This document shows, piece by piece, positions 4,079-64,000 of a DNA stretch of 64,000 bases; position 1 is the first letter of the stretch, and each line of letters begins with the position of its first letter. This stretch comes from an uncultured Clostridia bacterium. GTDB taxonomy: Bacteria; Bacillota; Clostridia; Oscillospirales; QAKW01. The notes beneath the pieces were generated by a model, which saw only the letters and a list, made by a program, of their open reading frames with translations, was not told the origin of the DNA and searched no databases. The stretch lies in contig CALXGQ010000005.1 in the NCBI GenBank assembly GCA_944387895.1, forward strand, positions 12,365 through 76,364, given 5' to 3'. The position numbers and the translations under genes were made by a program.

Positions 4079-4833
4079 TCACCAAACGGATCATCCCCTG
4101 CCTGGATGTAAAAAACGGCAGAGTGGTAAAGGGCGTAAATTTTCAAGGTCTTTCCGACGTTTCCTCGCCGGTGGAGCTGGGGAAATACTACAGCGACTGC
4201 GGGGCGGACGAGCTGGTGTTTTACGATATCACCGCCTCCGCCGAGGAGCGGGGGATCTTTACCGATATACTCAAAGAAGTCGCGCGGACGATATTCATCC
4301 CCCTTACGGTGGGAGGCGGCATCCGGACGCTGGAGGATTTCGACCGGGTGCTGAAATGCGGGGCGGATAAGGTCAGCGTCAATTCCGGCGCCATCAGCAA
4401 TCCCGGCCTGATCCCCGCCGCGGCGAAACGATACGGCGATCAGTGCGTGGTTCTTTCGGTGGACGTCAAGCGGGTCGACGGCGTTTACCGGGTCTTTGCC
4501 CGGGGCGGCCGGGAGAATACCGGGATCGAGGCGGTCAGCTGGATCCGGTTCTGCGTGGAAAACGGCGCCGGCGAGGTGGTGCTGAATTCCATCGATACCG
4601 ACGGCGTAAAGGGCGGTTTTGATCTGGAGATGCTGGAAGCGGTCAGCAACGCCGTTGCGGTGCCGGTCATCGCCTCCGGCGGCGCGGGCTGCGCCGAGGA
4701 TTTCGTCGCGCTGTTCAAAAAGCTGCCGAAGGTGGATGCAGGTCTTGCGGCCTCCATCTTCCATTTCGGCGAGGTTCGGATCCCGGAGCTGAAGCGGATC
4801 CTGAAAGAAAATAATATCAATGTGAGGATATGA
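4075..4833 (+). CDS. hisF: imidazole glycerol phosphate synthase, cyclase subunit
   Basis: 252 aa; [19 protein letters not shown] and SGGAG motifs typical of HisF. Confidence 0.95.
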
Positions 4834-53392: not shown

Positions 53393-56300
53393 TTAGTCCT
53401 GCCGCTCCGGTTGGGCGCGCAGCCCGGCATAGGTTTTGAGAAAGGCGTTCATCTCTTCCAGTAGATGGCCCCGATCCCGGATCTTCAGCGTGAAATAGGG
53501 TCTGGCTCCGATGGAATAGAGCAGCCGACCGTTCATGGCGTGCACCAGCCGGGCAAGCAGCTCCGGCTGCGGCTCGCCGGCAAAAAAGAGAACGGCGTCC
53601 TGCTTTTGCTTGATATCGATGATGCCGTTTTCCCGGGCCATGGCGCGGAGCAGAGCAATCTTCATCAGGTTGACAACGCTCTCCGGTGGATCGGAAAAGC
53701 GGTCGCAAAGCTCATCGATCACGTCGCCAAAATCCTCCTCGGAGGAGATGGCGGCGATTTTTTTATAAAGATCGATCCGGGTCTTTTCGCTGGGGACGTA
53801 GTCCTTGGGGATGAATGCGCTGACGGAAACGTCGACGGCGCAGTCCGTCTGGGGCGGCTCTTGCCGACCCTGCTCCTCGTTGACGGCCTCCCGGAGGATC
53901 CGCATATACATGTCATAGCCGACGATATTCATCTGCCCGTGCTGTTTTTCTCCCAGCAGCGCGCCGGCGCCCCGGATCTCCAGATCCCGCATGGCGATTT
54001 TAAGGCCGCTGCCAAATTCCGTAAATTCCCGGAGCGTCGCCAGCCGTTTGGCGGCGGCTTCGTTTACCTCGGCGCCCCGGCGGTAGGTCAGGTATGCGTA
54101 GGCGCGGGTACTGCTGCGCCCCACCCGTCCGCGGATCTGATGCAGCTGGGAAAGGCCCAGCCGGTCGGCGTCCTCGATGATCAGGGTATTGGCGAAGGAG
54201 ACGTCGATCCCCGTTTCGATGATGGTGGTGCAGATCAGGATATCTACCTCGTGGTGCAGAACGCGATCCCAGGTTTTTTCCAGCTCGGTTCCGGTCATCT
54301 TCCCGTGCCCCACGGCGATTCGCGCCTCCGGCAGCCGGGCGGAAAGGCGCTCGGCGATCCGATCCAGAGCGTCGATGTCGTTTTTCAGATAGAAGACGCA
54401 GCCGCCCCGCTTCAGCTCCCGGGCAATGGCGGAGAGCAGCAGCTCGGTATCGTATTCCAGAATATAGGTGACGACAGGCTGGCGGTCGGCAGGCGGATCC
54501 TCGATGATGGAAAGATCCCGGATCCCGGAAAGCGCCATGTTCAGCGTGCGGGGGATGGGGGTGGCGCTCATGGTCAGCACGTCCACGCCGACGGAAAGCT
54601 CCTTGATCTTCTCCTTATGCTTAACGCCGAATCGCTGTTCTTCATCGATGATCAGCAATCCCAGCTTTTTAAAATGGACGTCGCCGGAGAGCAGCCGGTG
54701 GGTGCCGATGATCATATCCAGCCTGCCGGTTTCCAGGTCGGAAAGGATCCGGCGGGTCTCCCCCGGGGAGCGGAACCGGTTCAAAACGGCGGTGCTGACG
54801 GGAAAATCGGCAAAGCGCTCCCGAACGGTAAGAAAATGCTGCTCCGAGAGGATGGTGGTGGGGCAGAGCAGAGCGACCTGAAAGCCGTTGTCGATGGCCT
54901 TGAAGGCCGCCCGGAGCGCCACTTCTGTTTTTCCGAAGCCCACGTCGCCGCAGAGCAGCCGATCCATGGGGCATGCGCGCTCCATATCCTGCTTGATCTC
55001 CTCCACGCATCGGATCTGATCGGGCGTTTCCTCATAGGGGAACTGCTCTTCAAAGCGGAGCTGCCAATCGGAATCCGGCTCGCAGGGGATGCCGGGAGCC
55101 TGCAGCCGCTTGGCATAAAGGGCGATCAGCTCCCGGGCGATCTCCCGGGACTGGTTTTTCACCCGCGCCTTGGTTTTCTCCCACTGCGCTCCGCCCAGCC
55201 GGGAGAGCCGGACGGTTTTGTCCTCGGCGGTGCCGATGTATTTGGAGATCAGATCCAGCTGCGGGCAGGGGACGAAGAGGGTATCGCCCTTGTCGTAGCC
55301 GATCACGATATAGTCCTTCACAACCCCCTGATTTTCAACCTGACGGATTCCCTTATAAACGCCGATCCCATGGGAAACGTGCACCACGAGGTCGCCCGGC
55401 GTGATATCGTTGAAGGAACGGATTTTTTCCCCTTTGTACGGGCCGGCGCGGCGGGCAGTTCGGGCGGTTTTCCGGATTCCGGCGGAGATCAGCAGAAGGC
55501 CGGCGTCGGGGAAGCGCAGATTGCAGGAAAGCGGGCTTTCCAGGCAGCAGACGAACCCTTCCCGGGGCGATTCCGCCAGGGGAACGCGGGCGTCGGCCAG
55601 GGCGGATTTCAGCTCCGCCAGCCGCTCGGCCGTCCCGGTCAGAAGAATGATATCGCCGTCCTCGGCGGCGCGCAGCAATTCGGTCAGCAGCGCCTCCTCC
55701 CGGTAGAGGGGCACCGGATCTTCCAGCACCCGGATCTGCCGGAGCGCGCCCAGCTCCTGCCCCGGAGCGGGGGAAAGGGCGGAAAAGAGAAAGGTCTTTC
55801 CGTTCCAGCGCGCTTCAAAGGCGTTCTGATCCAGAAAATAGGCACCCTCGGCCATAAAGACGCCCTTTTCCGCATGGCGGACGCGCTCTTCGTTGAGCTG
55901 CCATTCCATAAAGGAAAAAACCTTCTGCTGGCCGGCGTAATCATCGATAAAGAGCAGGCCGTCGTGGAGATCCAGCGGCGTAAAGAGGGTGGCGTAAAGC
56001 AGCGGCAGATACCGATCCACCGCAACGCTGCGGCCGGTTTCCAGCCGCTCGATGTCCTCCTTCAGGCCGGGGTGGTGGGTTTCCGCCTCCAGCTTTTTCA
56101 GCAGCGGCAGCAGCCGCTGCTCTTCTCCCCGGCGGGAGCGGCAGGCCACCAGCTCCGCTTCCCCGACGGTTTCCAGCGTCCGCTGGGTCAGTACGTCGAA
56201 GAAAACGATCCGGTCGATCTCGTCGCCGAAGAACTCGATGCGCAGGGGATGGGGATAATTGGGGGAAAAAACGTCCAGGATCCCGCCCCGGCGGGCGAAG

Positions 56301-56803
56301 CTGCCGCTTCCCTCCACCAGCTCAAAGGAAGAATAACCTCTTTCGGTAAGGAACGCGGTCAGCGCGTCAAGATCATAAGAATCCCCGGTCTTCAGCAGAA
56401 GCCCCCGCTCATCCGCTTCCTCCGGGGGCGCGACCGGCATCAGCAGGGCGCTCAGGGTGGTCACGATCAGGGAATAGTCCCCGGTACGCATTTTTTTCAG
56501 GGTTTCCGCCTGCCGGATCTCCCAGTCCCGGGAGCGGGCGGAATAGGCGTCAAACAAAAAATCCCGCTCCGGCAGATAATAGACCTTTTCGCCCAAAAGG
56601 GCGCGGAAAGCCGCGAGAATTTCCTCCTGCCCCGCCTCCTGACGGATAACGTAAATTCCCTTATGATGCAGTTTTTTGCAGAGATAGGCGGCTACCGGGA
56701 TGCCGCTTTTCCCCGAGAGGCCGTTGATGGCGACGGGGCGCCCGCCGCCGGCCGGCAGATTTTGCAGCGCCGGTTCCCGATCCAGAAGAGAAAGAATATC
56801 CAT
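53393..56803 (-). CDS. mfd: transcription-repair coupling factor
   Basis: Start MDILSLL (56803); SF2 helicase motifs GDVGFGKTEVA, IIDEEQRFGV; CarD-like and TRG regions; follows pth. Confidence 0.95.
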   Translation of the reverse strand: MDILSLLDREPALQNLPAGGGRPVAINGLSGKSGIPVAAYLCKKLHHKGIYVIRQEAGQEEILAAFRALLGEKVYYLPERDFLFDAYSARSRDWEIRQAETLKKMRTGDYSLIVTTLSALLMPVAPPEEADERGLLLKTGDSYDLDALTAFLTERGYSSFELVEGSGSFARRGGILDVFSPNYPHPLRIEFFGDEIDRIVFFDVLTQRTLETVGEAELVACRSRRGEEQRLLPLLKKLEAETHHPGLKEDIERLETGRSVAVDRYLPLLYATLFTPLDLHDGLLFIDDYAGQQKVFSFMEWQLNEERVRHAEKGVFMAEGAYFLDQNAFEARWNGKTFLFSALSPAPGQELGALRQIRVLEDPVPLYREEALLTELLRAAEDGDIILLTGTAERLAELKSALADARVPLAESPREGFVCCLESPLSCNLRFPDAGLLLISAGIRKTARTARRAGPYKGEKIRSFNDITPGDLVVHVSHGIGVYKGIRQVENQGVVKDYIVIGYDKGDTLFVPCPQLDLISKYIGTAEDKTVRLSRLGGAQWEKTKARVKNQSREIARELIALYAKRLQAPGIPCEPDSDWQLRFEEQFPYEETPDQIRCVEEIKQDMERACPMDRLLCGDVGFGKTEVALRAAFKAIDNGFQVALLCPTTILSEQHFLTVRERFADFPVSTAVLNRFRSPGETRRILSDLETGRLDMIIGTHRLLSGDVHFKKLGLLIIDEEQRFGVKHKEKIKELSVGVDVLTMSATPIPRTLNMALSGIRDLSIIEDPPADRQPVVTYILEYDTELLLSAIARELKRGGCVFYLKNDIDALDRIAERLSARLPEARIAVGHGKMTGTELEKTWDRVLHHEVDILICTTIIETGIDVSFANTLIIEDADRLGLSQLHQIRGRVGRSSTRAYAYLTYRRGAEVNEAAAKRLATLREFTEFGSGLKIAMRDLEIRGAGALLGEKQHGQMNIVGYDMYMRILREAVNEEQGRQEPPQTDCAVDVSVSAFIPKDYVPSEKTRIDLYKKIAAISSEEDFGDVIDELCDRFSDPPESVVNLMKIALLRAMARENGIIDIKQKQDAVLFFAGEPQPELLARLVHAMNGRLLYSIGARPYFTLKIRDRGHLLEEMNAFLKTYAGLRAQPERQD

Positions 56804-56807
56804 GCCT

Positions 56808-57365
56808 TCACCTGTTGAAGCGGTTTTGCGCGCCGGCGTAATCACCTTCCAGCAAAAGCCGCACCGCGCCGGGAACGGTGCGCAGCACCTCTTCCAGCTT
56901 GCCAAGATCCTCCCTGCCAAAGCGGCTGAGCACCCAGTCCGCCAGATCGTAATCCGGCCTCGGCTTCTGCCCCACGCCGATCTTGATGCGCAGGAATTCC
57001 TGGCTGCCCAGTACCCGGATGATATCCTTCAGGCCGTTGTGCCCGCCGTCGCTGCCCTTGTCGCGGATCCGCAGCCGCCCGACCTCCATGGAAACGTCGT
57101 CGGCGATCACGATGATATGATCCCGGGGGATTTTATAATAGGAACCAACGTCGTTTACCGCGGTTCCCGACCGGTTCATAAAGGTCAGCGGCCGAACAAA
57201 GAGGATTTCTCTGCTTCCCTCCGAAGCCCGGCTCATCAGGGCGGTCTGCCGGCTGCCAAAGCTTTTGGCGCCGAAGTCCTGCTCCAGGATATCCAGCGCC
57301 ATAAATCCGGCGTTATGGCGCGTTTTTTCATAGGAACGGCCGGGATTCCCCAGCCCCACCACCAT
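56808..57365 (-). CDS. pth: peptidyl-tRNA hydrolase
   Basis: MVVGLGNPGRSYEKTRHNAGF start (ATG 57365 behind AAGGAG); ORF also open to ATG 57398. Confidence 0.9.
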   Translation of the reverse strand: MVVGLGNPGRSYEKTRHNAGFMALDILEQDFGAKSFGSRQTALMSRASEGSREILFVRPLTFMNRSGTAVNDVGSYYKIPRDHIIVIADDVSMEVGRLRIRDKGSDGGHNGLKDIIRVLGSQEFLRIKIGVGQKPRPDYDLADWVLSRFGREDLGKLEEVLRTVPGAVRLLLEGDYAGAQNRFNR

Positions 57366-57519
57366 GAACCGCTCCTTTTTAAATGGACTGAAAAACATAC
57401 CTTCACCTCTGTTTCAGCGGCGCTGCCGCACCGCCGGATTTTCCGCATTGCCGGCAGAGCCCTTCCCGCTCCGCCGCGGGAAGGGTTCGTTTTTTTCGGA
57501 CTCTGCCTGGATTTGCGCG

Positions 57520-57634
57520 GAAAGAAAGCAAAGAAACCGATCCGCCGCCGGGTCGGCGGCGGGAAAATGCGTTTCTGAACGAGAAGGTCATGACCACCGC
57601 AGGGCAGTTCCCTTTCGGGGATCACGACCGTCGT
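57520..57634 (-). ncRNA. candidate small RNA or attenuating 5' leader upstream of pth
   Basis: Begins just downstream of a near-consensus promoter; several short hairpins; ends at GC hairpin CCGCCGCCG-ACC-CGGCGGCGG plus interrupted U tract; no ORF. Confidence 0.3.
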
Positions 57635-57640
57635 GGGATT

Positions 57641-57669
57641 ATTATACCACGAGCCGCCGTGAAATTCAA
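57641..57669 (-). promoter_or_regulatory. near-consensus sigma-A promoter (minus strand)
   Basis: TTGAAT (57669-57664), 17-nt spacer, TGg-TATAAT (57646-57641). Confidence 0.6.
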
Positions 57670-57803
57670 TTGATAAATTTCTCTTTCTGCCGGCCGGGGG
57701 GAATGAGGCCGATAGGGGCGCGGAGTCGCTTCAAACAAAAGAAAAATGACAATAAAAGCGCCGTTTTCAGGTAAAATATAAAAAATACGCGGAGGTAATC
57801 AGC

Positions 57804-58649
57804 ATGAAAGAACACGTTATCTCAAAAGAAACCATCAGCGATTTCAAACAGCAGTTGTGTCTGGAGGAAAAATCGGAGGCGACCATCGGGAAATACCTTC
57901 ACGATATCAGGGTATTTGCGCAGTATGTCGGAAATACCTCAATCACCAGAGAAAAAGCCGTTGCCTATAAGCAAAATCTGATCGCGCAGGGCTATGCCAT
58001 GCGCAGCGTAAATTCGATGATCGCGTCGCTCAATAGTTATTTTGTTTTTGTCGGGCTTTTAGACTGTAAACTGAAATCCGTAAAAATTCAACGTCAGATT
58101 TTTTGCGCCGAGGAAAAAGAATTGACCAAAGCCGAATATGAGCGTCTGCTCAGAGCGGCCGGGCAAAAGGGGAATCAACGGCTGAATCTCATGATCCAGA
58201 CAATCTGTTCCACGGGGATCAGAGTAAGCGAATTGCAGTTTATAACGGTGGAAGCTGTGCGCAAAGGGGAGGCGGTGGTGTCCCTGAAAGGAAAAACGCG
58301 AACGATCTTTATCGTTAAAGAACTGCGTAAAAAATTGCTCCGCTATATAGCGGAGCAGAAAATCGCAGCAGGAAATGTGTTTGTAACAAGAACAGGCAAG
58401 CCTGTCAGCCGATCCAACATCTGGAGAGAAATGAAAAATCTTTGCAGGCAGGCGGGCGTCAATCCTGATAAAGTATTTCCGCATAATCTTCGTCATCTGT
58501 TTGCCCGTACATTTTATGGCATTGAAAAGGATATCGCGAAACTTGCCGATATTCTCGGCCATTCCAGTATCAATACAACGCGCATTTATATCATGACAAC
58601 AGGAAACGAGCATCGCCAGCGTATGGAACGGATGTGCCTGATCATATAA
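57804..58649 (+). CDS. tyrosine-type site-specific recombinase (XerC/D-like, candidate invertase)
   Basis: 281 aa; N-terminal SAM-like core-binding domain; catalytic signature GIRVSEL (R), HNLRHLF (HxxR), LGHSSINTTRIY (H...Y); GGAGG RBS. Confidence 0.9.
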   Translation: MKEHVISKETISDFKQQLCLEEKSEATIGKYLHDIRVFAQYVGNTSITREKAVAYKQNLIAQGYAMRSVNSMIASLNSYFVFVGLLDCKLKSVKIQRQIFCAEEKELTKAEYERLLRAAGQKGNQRLNLMIQTICSTGIRVSELQFITVEAVRKGEAVVSLKGKTRTIFIVKELRKKLLRYIAEQKIAAGNVFVTRTGKPVSRSNIWREMKNLCRQAGVNPDKVFPHNLRHLFARTFYGIEKDIAKLADILGHSSINTTRIYIMTTGNEHRQRMERMCLII

Positions 58650-58670
58650 AAATTGTTGATGTAATCAGAA

Positions 58671-58693
58671 AAACAACATAATCCGTATTATGT
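58671..58693 (+). repeat. left recombination-site candidate, copy 1
   Basis: AAACAACATAATCCGTATTATGT; exact reverse complement at 58988-59010. Confidence 0.9.
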
Positions 58694-58733
58694 ACTACAT
58701 ATTGTTTAATAAAAATTGTTGATGTAATCAGAA

Positions 58734-58756
58734 AAACAACATAATCCGTATTATGT
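58734..58756 (+). repeat. left recombination-site candidate, copy 2
   Basis: Identical to 58671-58693. Confidence 0.9.
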
Positions 58757-58987
58757 ACTACATATTGTTTAAATTGGTCCAATAATACCGATTTTGCATA
58801 AATATTATAGCATACTGGGCAGAAAAAAACAATCGCCTCACATAAAAATCATAATTTTGCTGATTTTTTTGCAACAATGAAAGGCCTTTTTCGTAAATAA
58901 CGAACAAAGGCTTGCTTATTTGCGCCCTTTTTTCTCTATTTTGCCGCTAAAAGCGGATAAAAGAATAAAGGTCATTCGTGTTTTACA
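58757..58987. promoter_or_regulatory. candidate invertible promoter segment (231 bp; 294 bp if copy 1 is used)
   Basis: A/T-rich, ORF-free, bounded by 23-bp exact inverted repeats, next to a tyrosine recombinase gene. Confidence 0.6.
58804..58832 (-). promoter_or_regulatory. promoter inside the invertible segment, currently facing away from the operon
   Basis: Minus strand TTGTTT (58832-58827), 17-nt spacer, TGc-TATAAT (58812-58804). Confidence 0.5.
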
Positions 58988-59010
58988 ACATAATACGGAT
59001 TATGTTGTTT
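58988..59010 (-). repeat. right recombination-site candidate (inverted)
   Basis: ACATAATACGGATTATGTTGTTT; itself a 10-4-10 dyad ACAACATAAT-ACGG-ATTATGTTGT. Confidence 0.9.
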
Positions 59011-59106
59011 ACCGCACGGGAAAAGGCTTTTTCGCATTTCGGCCGCGGCGGAAAGCGGCCGATCGCAGCCCGAAGCGATAAAAATCTACAGAATGGGAGA
59101 AAAAAG

Positions 59107-59805
59107 ATGCAAGTGCGCGCAAAATCAAAAGCAAGGCCGATCCATCGGGTGATGACGATCATCGGGATTCTTTTATGCGTGGTATTCGGCTTTCTGCTGA
59201 TATGCAACCTGACCATTATTATAAAAGGATCCATCGATCCTTCAAGGCCGCCGTCTATAATGGGCACGACCCCGATGGTCGTTCTTTCGGGCTCCATGTC
59301 GGGGGATGCGGAGGATCATATTGAAGCCGGCGATCTGATTTTTGTCGGGAAGGCCGATCCGGAAGAATTAAAGGTCGGCGACGTGATCGCCTATATGGAG
59401 GAAGACTCCACTTCGGTGGTAACCCACCGCATAATCGAAATCAAAACCGCCGAGGACGGCACGCCGTTTTTCATCACGAAAGGCGACGCTAACAACGTGG
59501 AGGACGATACCCCCGTCACGGTGGACAGGCTGATCGGCAGTTATCAATTCCGCATTGCCGGGGTAGGTAATTTTGCTTTGTTTTTGCAAACGCCGATCGG
59601 GATGCTGCTTTTCATCGGGGTGCCCTTGCTGGCGTTTATCATTTACGACATTCTTCGCCGGCAGCATTATGCCAATAAGGAAAAGAAAAACACGCAGGCT
59701 TTGGAGGAAGAGCTGGAGCGGCTCCGGGCCGCCGCAAATAAGCAGAGTGAAGCCGGGCAGGACGAAGCCAAGCAGAGCGAAGCCAGGCAGGGCGCAGATC
59801 TTTAA
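59107..59805 (+). CDS. archaeal-type signal peptidase I (SipW-like), copy 1
   Basis: Start MQVRAKSK (ATG 59107); N-terminal TM, catalytic Ser box VVLSGSMSGD, His box VVTHRIIE, KGDAN, C-terminal TM plus charged tail. Confidence 0.8.
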   Translation: MQVRAKSKARPIHRVMTIIGILLCVVFGFLLICNLTIIIKGSIDPSRPPSIMGTTPMVVLSGSMSGDAEDHIEAGDLIFVGKADPEELKVGDVIAYMEEDSTSVVTHRIIEIKTAEDGTPFFITKGDANNVEDDTPVTVDRLIGSYQFRIAGVGNFALFLQTPIGMLLFIGVPLLAFIIYDILRRQHYANKEKKNTQALEEELERLRAAANKQSEAGQDEAKQSEARQGADL

Positions 59806-59945
59806 TTTTGTATATCTGCCCGAAGGTGGCCACGCACCGGTGGGATGAAGATATAATCGTGAGGATATCTCACCCCCGGCCAATAGAAGCCGGGAAAAAA
59901 TCAACAGCCGATAACGCGGCAAAATATGAAAAGGAGGACAATTCG

Positions 59946-60599
59946 GTGAAAAAGAATTGGACAATGAGAGTGGGAGTTGCTCTGGTGGCACTCACCCTTA
60001 TCACTTCTTGTTTTGTGGGCGGAACATTTGCAAAATACACCACAGCAGGCACAGGCACCGACTCTGCAAGAGTTGCAAGGTTCGGCGTGACTGTAACGGC
60101 AAACGGCAACATGTTTACAGACGAATATGCCAACGCTGACAATTCAGTAACAGTTGTCGGTCGAGGCGGCGCAAAGGTTGTGGCGCCCGGCACAAGTGGC
60201 GATATGGCATCCATGACTTTGCATGGTGAACCCGAAGTCGACGTAAAGGTTACATATGAAGCGATGGTTGAGCTGAGCAACAATTGGGTAGACGAAGACG
60301 GTGACTTCTATTTCCCCCTTGATATCATCGTAAACAAGCAGGAAGTTGACCTTTCAGGCGCAAAAAACAAAGACGCTGTGACTTCTGCCGTTGCCACTGC
60401 CATCAAAAATTATTCTAAAACATATAAGGCCGGCACAAATCTTTCTACGGTTGGCGCTGATTCTTTGGCAATTTCCTGGAAATGGGATTTTGAAGGCAAT
60501 AACGATGTGAATGATACCTACCTTGGCGATCAGGCCAATAAAGGAAATGCCGGCAGAATTACCATCGGTGTCAAGACCACGGTAACGCAAGTAGACTGA
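59946..60599 (+). CDS. TasA/camelysin-like secreted protein 1 with SipW-cognate-style signal peptide
   Basis: GTG 59946 behind AAGGAGGA (ATG 59964 alternative); KKNWTMRVGVALVALTLITSCFVGGTFAKYT then ARVARFGV; about 190-aa predicted beta-rich body. Confidence 0.65.
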   Translation: MKKNWTMRVGVALVALTLITSCFVGGTFAKYTTAGTGTDSARVARFGVTVTANGNMFTDEYANADNSVTVVGRGGAKVVAPGTSGDMASMTLHGEPEVDVKVTYEAMVELSNNWVDEDGDFYFPLDIIVNKQEVDLSGAKNKDAVTSAVATAIKNYSKTYKAGTNLSTVGADSLAISWKWDFEGNNDVNDTYLGDQANKGNAGRITIGVKTTVTQVD

Positions 60600-60632
60600 T
60601 ATAACGCATATGCAAAAAGCGATCGGAGTTTC

Positions 60633-60658
60633 CCCTGCCAGGTGTGGCACTGGCAGGG
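60633..60658 (+). other. GC-rich hairpin after the first TasA-like gene, no U tract
   Basis: CCCTGCCAG-GTGTGGCA-CTGGCAGGG. Confidence 0.6.
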
Positions 60659-60741
60659 TGGCTCTTGAGCTTATATTGGCAGGATAAAAGCCTGGCCTGT
60701 CAATACAAGTTCAAGAACAAAAAGGTTAACGGAGGCAGGTC

Positions 60742-61503
60742 GTGAATACGAAACTGAAAAATTCCATTGACTGGTTGCTGCCGGCATTTTTGATACTTTT
60801 TATTTTAGAGGTGATCGCGTTTCCTTTCGCGGTGGGGCTGACCTATGCGGGGCGCAGCGAGGATCCCGATCACACCCTCACCTATCAGGCCCGGAAGCTG
60901 ACCTGGAGCGCCGTGGAGGCGATAGACGCAAACGGTGCCGCCCGGCTTTCCATTTTCGACGCGGAATATCAAAGCGTATCCGCTTCAGACGGCAGCGCGG
61001 TGATCGCCCCCGGAACAGAAGGGTTCCATATCATCCGTTTCAAAAATAACGCGGATCATAAAATTGCGTTTACGGCGGTTCTTTATGCGATTCCCAGCGA
61101 TAGCGCCCTGCCGGTAGAGGCGAGCCTCTCCGACGGCGCTTTTGCCGACGCCGCGCCCAATCGGCTGCCCGAAGGGGTAAAAGAGGAGCAGGTCATCCGC
61201 TCCGTTTCCGGCAGCGTAAACAAAAGCGAGATCGTCGACTTTGATATATCCTGGCTTTGGCAGTATGAAACCGGCGCGGAGCAGGATCGGATCGACGTTG
61301 ATTTCGGCGATCGATCGGCAGAGGGGAGCCCTGATGAGATCAAGGTGGGCTTTTATCTTGTGGTCGAGGACGAGGGGGCGCTTCATCTGCCGGAAACCGG
61401 CGACAATACCCGCATGACCCTTTATATCCTGCTGATGGGGATCAGCGGCGCGATGCTTTTGATCCTGGTGATCTTTCAAAAACGGGAGAAAAAAGGCAAA
61501 TGA
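60742..61503 (+). CDS. LPETG cell-wall-anchored paralogue of the TasA-like proteins
   Basis: 253 aa, GTG start; N-terminal TM; shares VIAPGTEG and ISWLWQYE-type motifs with 59946 gene; C-terminal LPETG, hydrophobic stretch, KREKKGK. Confidence 0.7.
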   Translation: MNTKLKNSIDWLLPAFLILFILEVIAFPFAVGLTYAGRSEDPDHTLTYQARKLTWSAVEAIDANGAARLSIFDAEYQSVSASDGSAVIAPGTEGFHIIRFKNNADHKIAFTAVLYAIPSDSALPVEASLSDGAFADAAPNRLPEGVKEEQVIRSVSGSVNKSEIVDFDISWLWQYETGAEQDRIDVDFGDRSAEGSPDEIKVGFYLVVEDEGALHLPETGDNTRMTLYILLMGISGAMLLILVIFQKREKKGK

Positions 61504-62036
61504 CCAAAGTGCTGCGCATAGCTCTCAAGATACTCAGCGGGGCAGTCACCGCCCTTTTGATCCTGATTATTACCGCCAATATTTACCTTTTGGCCGCCCG
61601 GAAAATAACGGGCAGGCAAAATGCCACCGTTTTCGGATTTTCTTCCGCCGTGGTGCTGTCGGGCAGTATGGCGGATGCGATCCAGCCCAACGATCTGATC
61701 ATTACCAAAAGCCAGAAGACCTATGAAATCGGCGATATTATTATGTTTGAGAGCGGCTCCGCCACGGTGACCCATAGAATCATCGACCGGAACGCCGAGG
61801 GATATATCACCAGGGGGGACGCTAATCAAACCGCCGACGAAACGCCGGTGCCGCCGGAAAAGGTGATCGGCAGGGTGATCGCCGTGATCCCCAAAATCGG
61901 CCGCGTCATTTCCTTTTTCGCAACGCCGCTCGGGATGCTGATCTTAGTGCTGGCGCTGCTTTTGGCGATAGAATTGCCGAGCCTGGCGCGCCGCAGAAAT
62001 CAAAAGAAAGGAGAAGCCGAGGCGCATGAAGAATAA
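61500..62036 (+). CDS. archaeal-type signal peptidase I (SipW-like), copy 2
   Basis: 178 aa; VVLSGSMADA, VTHRIID, RGDAN; N- and C-terminal TMs; overlaps both neighbours. Confidence 0.8.
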   Translation: MTKVLRIALKILSGAVTALLILIITANIYLLAARKITGRQNATVFGFSSAVVLSGSMADAIQPNDLIITKSQKTYEIGDIIMFESGSATVTHRIIDRNAEGYITRGDANQTADETPVPPEKVIGRVIAVIPKIGRVISFFATPLGMLILVLALLLAIELPSLARRRNQKKGEAEAHEE

Positions 62037-62640
62037 AGCCGTCAAAATACCCTTCAAAAGAATTCTGCTCTATTTGTGCGTCACGCTGTTTCTTGCCACG
62101 GGCGTCACCTTTTCAAAATACATAACCCGCTCCGAAGGCGGCGACGGCGCGCGGGTCGCCAGGTTTGGAGAGCTGGCGCTCTATGAAACGGAAAACGGCG
62201 AAAAAGTAAACGGCCAAACCCTGATCTATGCCCCCGGCGTAACCATCACCAAAAATCCGGCGGTTGATTTTGCGTGCAATGAGCTTGCCGCTTATGTATT
62301 TGTAAAAATAGAAGCGCGAAACTGGCGCTTTGATCCGGCCGGGAACCGTTTTGCGCTGGTATACGAAAATACCGAAAAACTAACGTGGTCGGTCAATACC
62401 GCCTGGACGGCTTTATCCGGGCAGAACGGGGTTTATTATACTTATGTCCCTGCCGGCGACGCCCTTTCGGGGATGCCGATCATTCAGGGGGATCAGATCA
62501 CCGTTGCCGCCGATATCACCCGTTCGGAAATGGAGGCGGTGCAAAGCGGCATAAGCAACGTGACGTTTACATCCTATGCCGTTCAGGCCAACGGGTTTGA
62601 GAACGCGGCCGCCGCCTGGAGCTCGGTTTCGGCGAAATAA
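62026..62640 (+). CDS. TasA/camelysin-like secreted protein 2 with SipW-cognate-style signal peptide
   Basis: 204 aa; ILLYLCVTLFLATGVTFSKYIT then ARVARFGE, same motif as protein 1. Confidence 0.6.
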   Translation: MKNKAVKIPFKRILLYLCVTLFLATGVTFSKYITRSEGGDGARVARFGELALYETENGEKVNGQTLIYAPGVTITKNPAVDFACNELAAYVFVKIEARNWRFDPAGNRFALVYENTEKLTWSVNTAWTALSGQNGVYYTYVPAGDALSGMPIIQGDQITVAADITRSEMEAVQSGISNVTFTSYAVQANGFENAAAAWSSVSAK

Positions 62641-62663
62641 ATCCGGAGAGAAGGAGGAAGCAG

Positions 62664-64000
62664 ATGAAGAAACGAATCATTGCCGCTCTGCTGGCTGTTT
62701 GCACGCTGATATCAATCGGGCAAGCGCCCGGTTCAGTATCGGCAAATACTGCATCTTCTTATGATATTGAAATCACCGTCGACGGCGAACCGGTGAGCAA
62801 TGTTTCGCTCCCGCAGAGCACGAGAAAGGAAATCGCTGCAGAAGCTTCCCCCGCTGCCGAAAAAGGGGACTACAGCTGGCAGATCTGCGCGGAGATGCAG
62901 AACGATCTATGGGTCGATATTTACGGCGCCGAGGATCAAACGCTTACCCTTTCCTATGCGCTGATCTCCTCCCTGCTCGACGCCGCGGGAAGCGCCTATA
63001 TCCGCGCGGTGCTCACCGTGGACGGCAAACGCTATACCAGCGCGCCCCTCTGCGTCACGGTGGCCTATCAGGCAAGCCTGGAATCGGACGTGAACCCGCA
63101 GGAGCGCGCCGCCCTTAAAACGAAAGCGGGAAAAACGCGGGCGGCGGGAAAGGCGGGCTCCGATCTCGCAACGATAACCATCAACTATCTGGACTGGGAA
63201 AGCAGGGAAGAGATTTATTCTCCTTATACCGCCACCATTGAAAAAGGGACGGTCTTTGAGCAAAGCGTGATCAGCCCTACCTTTTTAGGCTACGCCCCCT
63301 ATACGGTTGCGGAGCAAGGGGACGGAACGTATGTTTTTACAGACGCAACCACCTATCTCCTGCAATATGCCGCAGGGGAGCTTACCGGGGACGTTGTTAT
63401 CAATATTTATTATAAGGCCATTGAGGTTTCCTATGCGGCGAGCTTTTTCTTTCAAAATGTCAATAACGACCTCTATACCGAAAGAACAGACCTTTATTAC
63501 AGCGGCAGAGCCGAAACGGGAACCATTATAGAGGATGATTTCCTTGCGGACCTGGCGGGGAACACCGAGGGCTTTAGTAAACTATATCATTATCCCGAGG
63601 CCGTTGCGGCGGACGGCAGCACCGTTTTTCAATGCTACTACGACCGCAACTACTACCTGCTGAAATTTGATATGGACGGCGGCTACGGCGTCGATCCCAT
63701 CTATGCCCGCTACGAAACGCCCTATATCGTCAGCGAGCCGGTGCGCTACGGTTATGTTTTTGCCGGCTGGGATTTGCTGACGGAGGATACCAACGGCAAT
63801 GGCGAGCCGGATCAGGGGGATGGGGTCGCCGACGCCCTGCCCGCCACGATCGAGGTGGGTAACCAAAACTACCGCGCGCTTTGGACCACTGCGGAAACGA
63901 CGTATGACGTTGTATATTGGCTTGAAAACGCCCGGGACGAAAATGGCGACGTGGCCGATAACGGCTATTCCTTTTTGACGTCCAGAGGCGATATAGCGGC
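62664..64000 (+). CDS. large secreted repeat protein (Listeria-Bacteroides/Flg_new-like repeat), 3' end beyond window
   Basis: Not in the ORF track because it has no stop in the window. ATG 62664 behind AAGGAGGA, and I translated it by hand without finding a stop. Signal peptide MKKRIIAALLAVCTLISIGQAPGSVSA; YYLLKFDMDGGYG...RYGYVFAGWDL repeat signature. Confidence 0.7.
   Translation, partial: MKKRIIAALLAVCTLISIGQAPGSVSANTASSYDIEITVDGEPVSNVSLPQSTRKEIAAEASPAAEKGDYSWQICAEMQNDLWVDIYGAEDQTLTLSYALISSLLDAAGSAYIRAVLTVDGKRYTSAPLCVTVAYQASLESDVNPQERAALKTKAGKTRAAGKAGSDLATITINYLDWESREEIYSPYTATIEKGTVFEQSVISPTFLGYAPYTVAEQGDGTYVFTDATTYLLQYAAGELTGDVVINIYYKAIEVSYAASFFFQNVNNDLYTERTDLYYSGRAETGTIIEDDFLADLAGNTEGFSKLYHYPEAVAADGSTVFQCYYDRNYYLLKFDMDGGYGVDPIYARYETPYIVSEPVRYGYVFAGWDLLTEDTNGNGEPDQGDGVADALPATIEVGNQNYRALWTTAETTYDVVYWLENARDENGDVADNGYSFLTSRGDIA

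Follow-up and report, generated by a model that had tools for sequence, protein, structure and literature searches.

A predicted invertible-promoter switch between a Xer-like recombinase gene and a SipW-type surface-protein operon in an uncultured gut Clostridium

How is the expression of a surface-protein operon controlled when the only thing that separates it from a tyrosine recombinase gene is a short DNA segment bounded by exact inverted repeats? Here we report the analysis of such a locus in a 64,000-nucleotide stretch of the genome of an uncultured Clostridia bacterium (assembly GCA_944387895.1, contig CALXGQ010000005.1), hereafter called the window. The recombinase gene occupies positions 57804-58649 of the window and the operon begins with the signal peptidase gene sipW1 at position 59107. 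We propose that the locus is a phase-variation switch with an invertible promoter, a reading to which we assign a probability of about 85%. Promoter inversion switches run by tyrosine recombinases are already known, and the window locus is a new case of this kind, while the anatomy of the family to which it belongs may be new.

The 23-nt repeat AAACAACATAATCCGTATTATGT is present in two copies on the left side of the segment, at 58671-58693 and 58734-58756, and its exact reverse complement (23/23) is located at 58988-59010, at a distance of 294 nt from the outer and 231 nt from the inner left copy. With up to three mismatches allowed, the 64-kb window contains these three copies and no others; the repeat was absent from each of 100 dinucleotide-preserving shuffles, and the chance expectation for inverted repeats of 23 nt is none. 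Each repeat includes a site composed of ACATAAT, a 4-nt centre (CCGT or ACGG), and ATTATGT. On the plus strand, the outer left site (58676-58693, with the repeat reaching back to 58671) and the inner left site (58739-58756, with the repeat reaching back to 58734) both read ACATAAT-CCGT-ATTATGT, and the right site (58988-59005, with the repeat running on to 59010) reads ACATAAT-ACGG-ATTATGT. With its flanks, the right site has the dif-like layout ACAACATAA-TACGGA-TTATGTTGT. The left side owes its second site, which makes three sites overall, to an exact 63-bp tandem duplication on the plus strand (58646-58771, with the two units at 58646-58708 and 58709-58771) that includes both left copies of the repeat. 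A preliminary description of this DNA had reported the exact reverse-complementary partner at 58988-59010, the dyad arms around an asymmetric CCGT/ACGG centre, and the position of the sites between the recombinase gene and the operon. All of these were found again, with the recombinase open reading frame at 57804-58649 and the operon start codon ATG at 59107, 96 nt past the right repeat.

Does the segment between the sites invert? We collected contigs encoding the same or a near-identical recombinase (at least 99% identity) and tabulated their sites. The flanks are constant in all same-species contigs, with mfd and pth upstream and sipW downstream, and both orientations of the enclosed cassette were found in this one species, in four arrangements. 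The cassette interior is forward in contigs of the window type, with two left sites and one right site (L001 and L009), in contigs without the duplication (L003 and L004), and in contigs that carry a 45-nt spacer and a site on the right as an exact reverse complement (L097 and L098). In the fourth arrangement the interior is flipped, with the promoter pointing into sipW and two right sites 21 nt apart (L101, GCA_949296035.1, and L102, ERZ17292902). The interiors of both flipped contigs match the window interior, read as its reverse complement, at 99.1-99.6% identity, their flanks are collinear with it, and the two are separated by single-nucleotide polymorphisms and thus represent independent assemblies. 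The opposite polarity of the left and right sites had been taken to predict inversion rather than excision, and these flipped copies of the same locus in the same species bear this out. The two right sites of the flipped contigs form the pair ACATAATACGGATTATGT TAT ACATAATACGGATTATGT, located 276-314 nt past the recombinase stop codon and not seen elsewhere.

The 63-bp duplication is itself polymorphic in the species, being absent from L003 and L004 and lying inverted to the right in L097 and L098. The right-side insert of the latter two contigs includes sequence from the region of the recombinase stop codon, which could have arrived there by no other route than an inversion at the outer left site and a subsequent inner one; this arrangement therefore indicates that all three sites are active. 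The transferred copy is located about 276-356 nt past the recombinase stop codon. Four additional contigs (L002, L010, L099, and L100) break at the inner end of the left repeat or one base beyond it, and another one, L011, runs past the left repeat into TGT, the bases with which the flipped junction begins. Such breaks fit mixed orientations within samples and do not prove them. Contig ends located 26 nt past the stop codon were also considered and were dropped as evidence of inversion, since the 63-bp duplication creates a branch in the assembly graph. In scans of Joint Genome Institute (JGI) metagenomes, neither the flipped junction nor the left flank with its site was matched; the latter result implies that the species is absent from the JGI collection, which makes the null result for the flipped junction uninformative.

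To what extent is this architecture shared? A scan of one genome per species returned at least 586 tblastn-confirmed relatives of the recombinase, mostly in metagenome-assembled genomes (MAGs) of gut Clostridia, and the switch architecture was checked in the best 80 of these loci. Paired sites were counted in those 67 loci whose sequence extends at least 350 nt downstream of the recombinase: in 62 of them, ACATAAT-NNNN-ATTATGT follows the recombinase stop codon and is accompanied by a partner site, at a median spacing of 262 nt. The left site is typically found about 28 nt past the stop codon (9-91 nt in 58 loci). The arms are unchanged across the family, with at most one mismatch allowed, and the 4-nt centres of the 62 loci fall into 33 classes, none of which is palindromic. 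Within a locus the paired centres are always reverse-complementary, so that the paired sites are inverted. In tyrosine recombinases, the crossover region must match in both partner sites. Fixed arms, combined with centres that vary between loci and remain reverse-complementary within each locus, support the earlier interpretation of the repeats as recombinase core sites. In one relative (L066) the arms are altered symmetrically, to ACAGAAT and ATTCTGT, and a relative that is 81% identical and located in another genomic context has the same CCGT site with two right copies. Inversion is also apparent between species, as two loci that share the GGTT centre (L059 and L070) have reverse-complementary cassettes and collinear flanks. 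Three MAGs contain two switch loci each.

The inner cassette of the window (58757-58987; 231 bp, 32% G+C), which is flipped in L101 and L102, contains a predicted promoter that faces the recombinase gene. This element, read directly on the minus strand (58804-58832), consists of the -35 box TTGTTT (58832-58827), a 17-nt spacer, and the TG-extended -10 box TGC-TATAAT (58812-58804). It had been described as the best promoter match in the area; the element was read at the same positions, but a generic promoter scan did not list it. The predicted strength of the promoter rests on its TG-extended, perfect -10 box, and its activity is something that we infer. The family provides a broader context for this prediction: 58 of 64 cassettes contain a TG-extended -10 box with a 17-nt spacer (TTGnnn-17-TGnTATAAT) that ends 36-49 nt from the nearer site. 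The predicted promoter points toward the recombinase in 48 cassettes and toward the cargo in 15, with one tie, and orientation calls from MAFFT alignments broadly agree with these counts. The flipped orientation had been expected to aim the promoter into sipW, and in L101 and L102 it does point that way; the orientation captured in the window is presumed to be transcriptionally OFF. The same segment had been called A/T-rich and free of open reading frames. The former holds, but the mechanical list of open reading frames includes two on the minus strand, of 46 and 49 amino acids, and nothing suggests that these are genes.

Upstream of the promoter, the cassette contains a central hairpin, GCCTTTTTCG-TAAATAA-CGAACAAAGGC (58884-58911), a candidate terminator or insulator. 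A hairpin of -8 kcal/mol or stronger is found in 58 of 62 family cassettes, mostly 50-62 nt upstream of the -35 box, and these hairpins are flanked by A-rich sequence on the 5' side and T-rich sequence on the 3' side, which suggests an insulator able to work in both directions. Another hairpin lies outside the cassette. In 48 of 58 loci, the stretch that separates the recombinase stop codon from the left site has, on the minus strand only, a G+C-rich hairpin with a T-run. This is a predicted terminator for transcripts leaving the cassette toward the recombinase, as would be expected if the cassette emitted transcripts in that direction. On the other side of the switch, a fixed leader (59011-59106, plus strand) connects the right repeat to sipW1 and carries a GGGAG ribosome-binding site and a G+C-rich hairpin. 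The generic scan found no plus-strand promoter within 59011-59106, and an Rfam search of the region 57400-59400 returned nothing near the gathering score and no riboswitch in the leader. The leader hairpin, CGGCCGC-GGCGGAAA-GCGGCCG at 59041-59062, has no T-run and no Rfam match.

Which enzyme could catalyse the inversion? The gene at 57804-58649 (plus strand) encodes a Xer-like tyrosine recombinase of 281 amino acids, the presumed invertase, which matches PF00589 (Phage_integrase) with 91.7 bits at a cut-off of 27.1 and PF02899 with 32.3 bits. Its top NCBIfam matches are XerA, XerD, and XerC, each under the respective equivalog cut-off (148.4 vs. 220, 120.2 vs. 329.6, and 111.7 vs. 335.15 bits), and its best match in PDB is the XerA-like protein 4A8E (9e-27). 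Six residues, R140, K164, H227, R230, H253, and Y262, are unchanged in 26 homologues and, in our own reading of the family motifs, are likely to be the catalytic ones. With a catalytic domain above the threshold and the R-K-H-R-H-Y positions intact, the protein belongs to the tyrosine recombinase superfamily. At least 8000 homologues were found at E<=1e-20, many of them about 70% identical and exactly 281 amino acids long.

Together, these elements suggest the following mechanism. Each site consists of two identical arms, (ACA)ACATAA and TTATGT(TGT), which enclose a 6-bp centre T-NNNN-A, in which the asymmetric CCGT or ACGG sets the polarity of the site. The Xer-like recombinase, encoded directly upstream of its own putative dif-like sites, would act on them, and since the left and right sites are inverted, recombination would flip 231 bp, or 294 bp via the outer left site. 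The cassette carries a predicted TG-extended promoter of the sigma-A type about 47 nt from one of its ends, with the hairpin behind it. In the state seen in the window, the promoter would fire toward the recombinase gene and the sipW operon would be silent. In the flipped state, it would fire through the right site and the leader of about 100 nt into the cargo, which begins with sipW1 and continues with a putative fibre subunit, the LPETG protein, sipW2, another such subunit, and finally a giant surface protein. The 63-bp duplication supplies a third site, which recombines as well and gives rise to extra arrangements. The roles given here to the hairpins are likewise predicted from their sequence and position.

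Several observations weigh against the proposed switch. The two orientations were observed across assemblies, as fixed differences between them and as contig breaks, and the flipped contigs do not mirror the window exactly, with a pair of right sites at a distance of 21 nt and no 63-bp duplication. The -35 box TTGTTT is weak, with a match at 3 of 6 positions, which is why the promoter was not called by the generic scan. The case for the adjacent recombinase as the likely catalyst of inversion is one of linkage alone. Finally, the terminator that separates the left site from the recombinase gene is degenerate in the window (dG -3.1), whereas that of most relatives is strong, and the promoter in its 'OFF' orientation may for this reason transcribe antisense into the recombinase gene. 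In the window, the corresponding region (58650-58675) has lost the G+C-rich stem of the terminator and kept the T-run.

Such read-through is central to an additional possibility, which would complement the promoter switch rather than replace it, namely that antisense RNA from the recombinase-facing promoter covers the 3' part of the recombinase gene and ends inside it, and that the orientation of the cassette thereby tunes recombinase expression and the switching rate, in a manner resembling the orientational control of fimE. We consider this addition possible but somewhat doubtful. A terminator scan identified a terminator-like hairpin on the minus strand within the recombinase gene (58336-58357), which overlaps the codons for LLRYIAEQ and is followed by ATTTTTT. 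The hairpin and its T-tract are conserved in most of 77 family members, with 78% of cells paired against 31-53% in slid controls; its covariation was not reached in any of 500 shuffles, and the T-rich tail is present on the antisense strand only. This hairpin may end a putative antisense RNA that would be made when the promoter faces the recombinase. The minus-strand-only terminator beside the left site in most relatives, its degeneration in the window, which makes read-through plausible, and the orientation bias of 48:15 toward the recombinase point in the same direction. On the other hand, in most relatives this first terminator would stop the transcripts before they reach the gene, making the scheme less general. 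The hairpin also lies within conserved codons, and counts of G-U pairs, with 78.1% of cells paired in the antisense and 74.7% in the sense reading, leave the selected strand undecided. A subclade with LLNY or LLSY at the position of the hairpin has no intragenic antisense hairpin.

The remaining alternatives would replace the promoter switch. As in the cwpV and flgB switches of Clostridioides difficile, the control could occur after initiation, with a promoter outside the cassette (for example, by read-through from the recombinase gene) and a terminator formed in one orientation only. A strong cassette hairpin with a T-rich tail on the plus strand (58884-58911) and the clostridial precedent of cwpV (PMC2784873) are in line with this model. 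It is nevertheless improbable, because the hairpin is available in both orientations with its A-rich and T-rich flanks and so would not discriminate ON from OFF, because 58 of 64 loci keep a TG-extended -10 box with a 17-nt spacer at a constant distance from the end of the cassette, and because predicted terminators shield the recombinase side from transcripts that exit the cassette. We regard as very unlikely a role of the repeats as attachment sites of a mobile island, as dif-like sites, or in dimer resolution, where the recombinase would integrate, excise, or resolve. The lower G+C content of the recombinase gene and operon (about 45-52%) as compared to the mfd/pth side (about 60%), the resemblance of the sites to dif, and the Xer-like enzyme would agree with such a role, but the two sites are in inverted orientation at a distance of about 250 nt, the segment between them was found flipped, the Xer equivalog cut-offs are not reached, and among the best 80 loci the paired layout recurs at different chromosomal positions, sometimes twice per genome. 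Even less credible is a chance palindrome or an assembly artefact without function. The exact 63-bp duplication and the contig breaks do resemble assembly trouble, yet the repeat did not occur by chance among the shuffles, the duplication was found in independent assemblies and also in mirrored form, and the sites are conserved family-wide with covarying centres. Moreover, a 23-nt repeat is shorter than assembler k-mers, so that a flipped assembly requires reads across both junctions.

How does the proposed promoter switch compare with characterized systems? The fimS element of Escherichia coli is an invertible promoter of a fibre operon, bounded by inverted repeats and acted upon by the adjacent tyrosine recombinases FimB and FimE (PMC2784873). 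The window locus resembles it in having a short segment with a predicted promoter in front of a putative fibre operon with a recombinase next door. It differs from fimS in that its recombinase is not of the FimB/FimE type (33.2 bits for NF007370 at a cut-off of 221, and 26.2 bits for NF007371 at a cut-off of 222), in its sites, which are dif-like and 18-23 nt long rather than 9-bp repeats, and in its single recombinase gene, which is transcribed toward the switch. In C. difficile, the XerC/XerD-family recombinase RecV is described as inverting segments of about 150-300 bp upstream of surface and motility genes (PMC2784873; PMC7446863), and the switches considered here are cwpV, flgB, cmrRST, and pdcB. 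The cwpV switch consists of 195 bp between 21-bp repeats; the RecV gene is remote from its targets and acts on several imperfect repeat pairs, and the cwpV switch is promoterless and works by terminator formation (PMC2784873). Both systems would have a clostridial Xer-type recombinase flipping a short segment in front of surface genes. Unlike RecV as described, the window system has an adjacent recombinase, perfect locus-specific dif-like sites, and an internal predicted promoter.

The layout of the sites matches that of dif. The E. coli dif site, GGTGCGCATAA-TGTATA-TTATGTTAAAT (PMC3025954), and the right site of the window, TTACAACATAA-TACGGA-TTATGTTGTTT, have in common CATAA, a 6-bp centre, and TTATGTT, and both arms of the window site are identical, as in single-recombinase Xer systems. 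Unlike in Xer/dif systems, in which a replicon has a single dif, the window family has, at many loci, an inverted pair of sites adjoining the gene, the configuration of the sites leads to inversion and not resolution, and their centre differs from locus to locus. Because the enzyme matches XerA, XerD, and XerC best and the right site is dif-like, our own reading is that the system may represent a domesticated Xer/dif pair with two identical arms.

A related group may already have been recorded in a 2025 survey of invertons in a defined gut community. Its inverton group 139 comprises 33 invertons, 32 of them in Clostridia, from 17 strains; it is linked to invertase group 35, nearly all members have an adjacent tyrosine-type recombinase, the total span is about 254-256 bp, and the read ratios shift across culture passages (PMC11892184). 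The size, host class, and adjacent recombinase agree with our loci, and group 139 is probably the window's family or a sister family. In the parts of PMC11892184 that were searched, dif-likeness, covarying centres, a third site, terminators, and SipW cargo are not mentioned. Likewise, no earlier description of dif-like sites, covarying centres, a third site, and terminators was found in the literature text searched, and a search with the site sequence yielded nothing but papers on dif or on unrelated subjects. We tentatively suggest, with somewhat less than even confidence, that these loci constitute an undissected and very large family of autonomous switch modules found in gut Clostridia, new as a described system, in which a domesticated Xer recombinase would act on paired dif-like sites with universal arms. 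The centre would serve as a private address (at least 33 classes), so that many naturally orthogonal copies could coexist in one genome and not recombine with one another. The system would further include terminators that insulate the cassette toward the recombinase, an antisense terminator within the recombinase gene, and an optional third site at 63 bp that provides for more than two states.

What would be switched in the window is a set of secreted and surface proteins. All cargo genes are located on the plus strand. The first one, sipW1 (59107-59805), encodes an archaeal/SipW-type signal peptidase I (TIGR02228, 99.4 bits at a cut-off of 51.85), and is followed by genes for a 217-amino-acid secreted protein without a family match, a putative fibre subunit (59946-60599), and for a 253-amino-acid protein with a C-terminal LPETG sorting signal (60742-61503). 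The LPETG motif is visible in the translation of the latter, which scores 21.2 with TIGR03063 (cut-off 18.15) and 17.0 with TIGR01167 (cut-off 15.9). Next come sipW2, encoding a second SipW-type signal peptidase (61500-62036; TIGR02228, 75.2 bits at the same cut-off), and a gene for a 204-amino-acid secreted protein (62026-62640), which has the same N-terminal motif TF[AS]KY..ARVARFG as the 217-amino-acid protein (BLASTP E-value of 5e-08 for the two N-termini). The last gene (62664-64000) is the start of one for a 1538-amino-acid surface protein that runs off the window, as judged from its translation and the gene table of L006, where the copy has 1538 amino acids and a faint Flg_new match.

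The preliminary description had spoken of a sipW/tasA-like operon. The SipW part is confirmed by TIGR02228, with the Bacillus SipW equivalog NF046067 remaining out of reach at 92 bits (cut-off 190), but the subunits lack a family match and resemble TasA only weakly in fold. The 217- and 204-amino-acid proteins had no meaningful sequence match in Pfam, NCBIfam, or PDB, and neither the TasA/camelysin family PF12389 nor the SipW-cognate signal TIGR04088 was matched in the subunits. The 217-amino-acid protein has 2456 unnamed homologues and no Pfam domain. Its AlphaFold model has a predicted local distance difference test (pLDDT) score of 68, with the C-terminal 140 residues confident; the best fold match in PDB is the TasA fibre 8AUR, a weak one (E-value of 7.9e-3, template modelling (TM) score of 0.33), and the next matches are donor-strand pilins, likewise weak. 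The label of a TasA-like fibre for these subunits is therefore plausible and not established. The operon resembles sipW-tasA of Bacillus subtilis and sipW-bsaA of Clostridium perfringens in combining a dedicated SipW peptidase with small secreted subunits. It differs from both in the absence of a camelysin/TasA (PF12389) match for the subunits and in the addition of a second SipW gene, the LPETG protein, and the 1538-amino-acid protein. Heterogeneous expression of sipW-bsaA in C. perfringens is reported in PMC7395162; unlike in that system, heterogeneity at the window locus would stem from DNA inversion and not from regulators. The 217-amino-acid protein is only 80-83% identical among strains that share at least 99% identity in recombinase and SipW, and such hypervariability of the main subunit suggests phage or host immune pressure. 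The region around mfd and pth (53393-57400) has a G+C content of about 60%, as against about 45-55% over the recombinase gene and operon (about 57600-64000), which suggests that the latter two form an acquired island.

The locus is a well-supported candidate for the phase-variable expression of surface fibres, here in an uncultured gut Clostridium, where the expression side is a prediction. The family anatomy translates into a simple annotation rule, by which a recombinase gene followed by ACATAAT-NNNN-ATTATGT and, after about 262 nt, by the reverse complement of this site would mark hundreds of invertons in Clostridia without the need for reads, and the rule could also flag reference genomes in which the cargo is 'OFF'. 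Experiments are made feasible by cultured carriers, which include Subdoligranulum variabile, Pusillibacter faecalis, and Monoglobus pectinilyticus, the last with 22/22 sites of this type. The covariation of the centres suggests that the four centre bases may set the specificity of the switch. If true, this four-base specificity would be useful for engineering, and orthogonal pairs of recombinases and sites could serve as genetic memory parts for Gram-positive anaerobes.

Several additional features were observed among the relatives. Family cargo is diverse and mostly associated with the surface, including SipW, BspA-type leucine-rich repeat, PARCEL, collagen-like LPXTG, and camelysin proteins, along with some TetR regulators. 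A third site located 63-64 bp from its neighbour, on either the left or the right side, is present in five other loci, in unrelated members of the family (L069, L070, L073, L074, and L076). In the window it arose by local tandem duplication, and the spacer of other species consists of a separate terminator hairpin; a distance of 63 bp corresponds to six helical turns. The contig of L059 ends with an inverted 3' end of the recombinase gene past the right site, probably a fold-back assembly, which would need both orientations in the sample, and in L063 the 3' end of the recombinase gene is repeated directly, together with the terminator and site. Judged by eye, the recombinase-proximal centres (L016-L096) begin with A in 4 of about 57 cases and never end with it, which suggests that the recombinase-proximal site has a preferred polarity relative to the recombinase gene. 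The same layout was found in a more distant relative, with 50% identity, in P. faecalis (L104; pMM59_01, 4339-4658), where the cassette is about 270 bp long. Its repeats are diverged (GACAAAAACAACATTTCGT) and begin at the stop codon, a third copy is located 36 nt away, and the switch lies upstream of a gene encoding an S-layer-homology protein.

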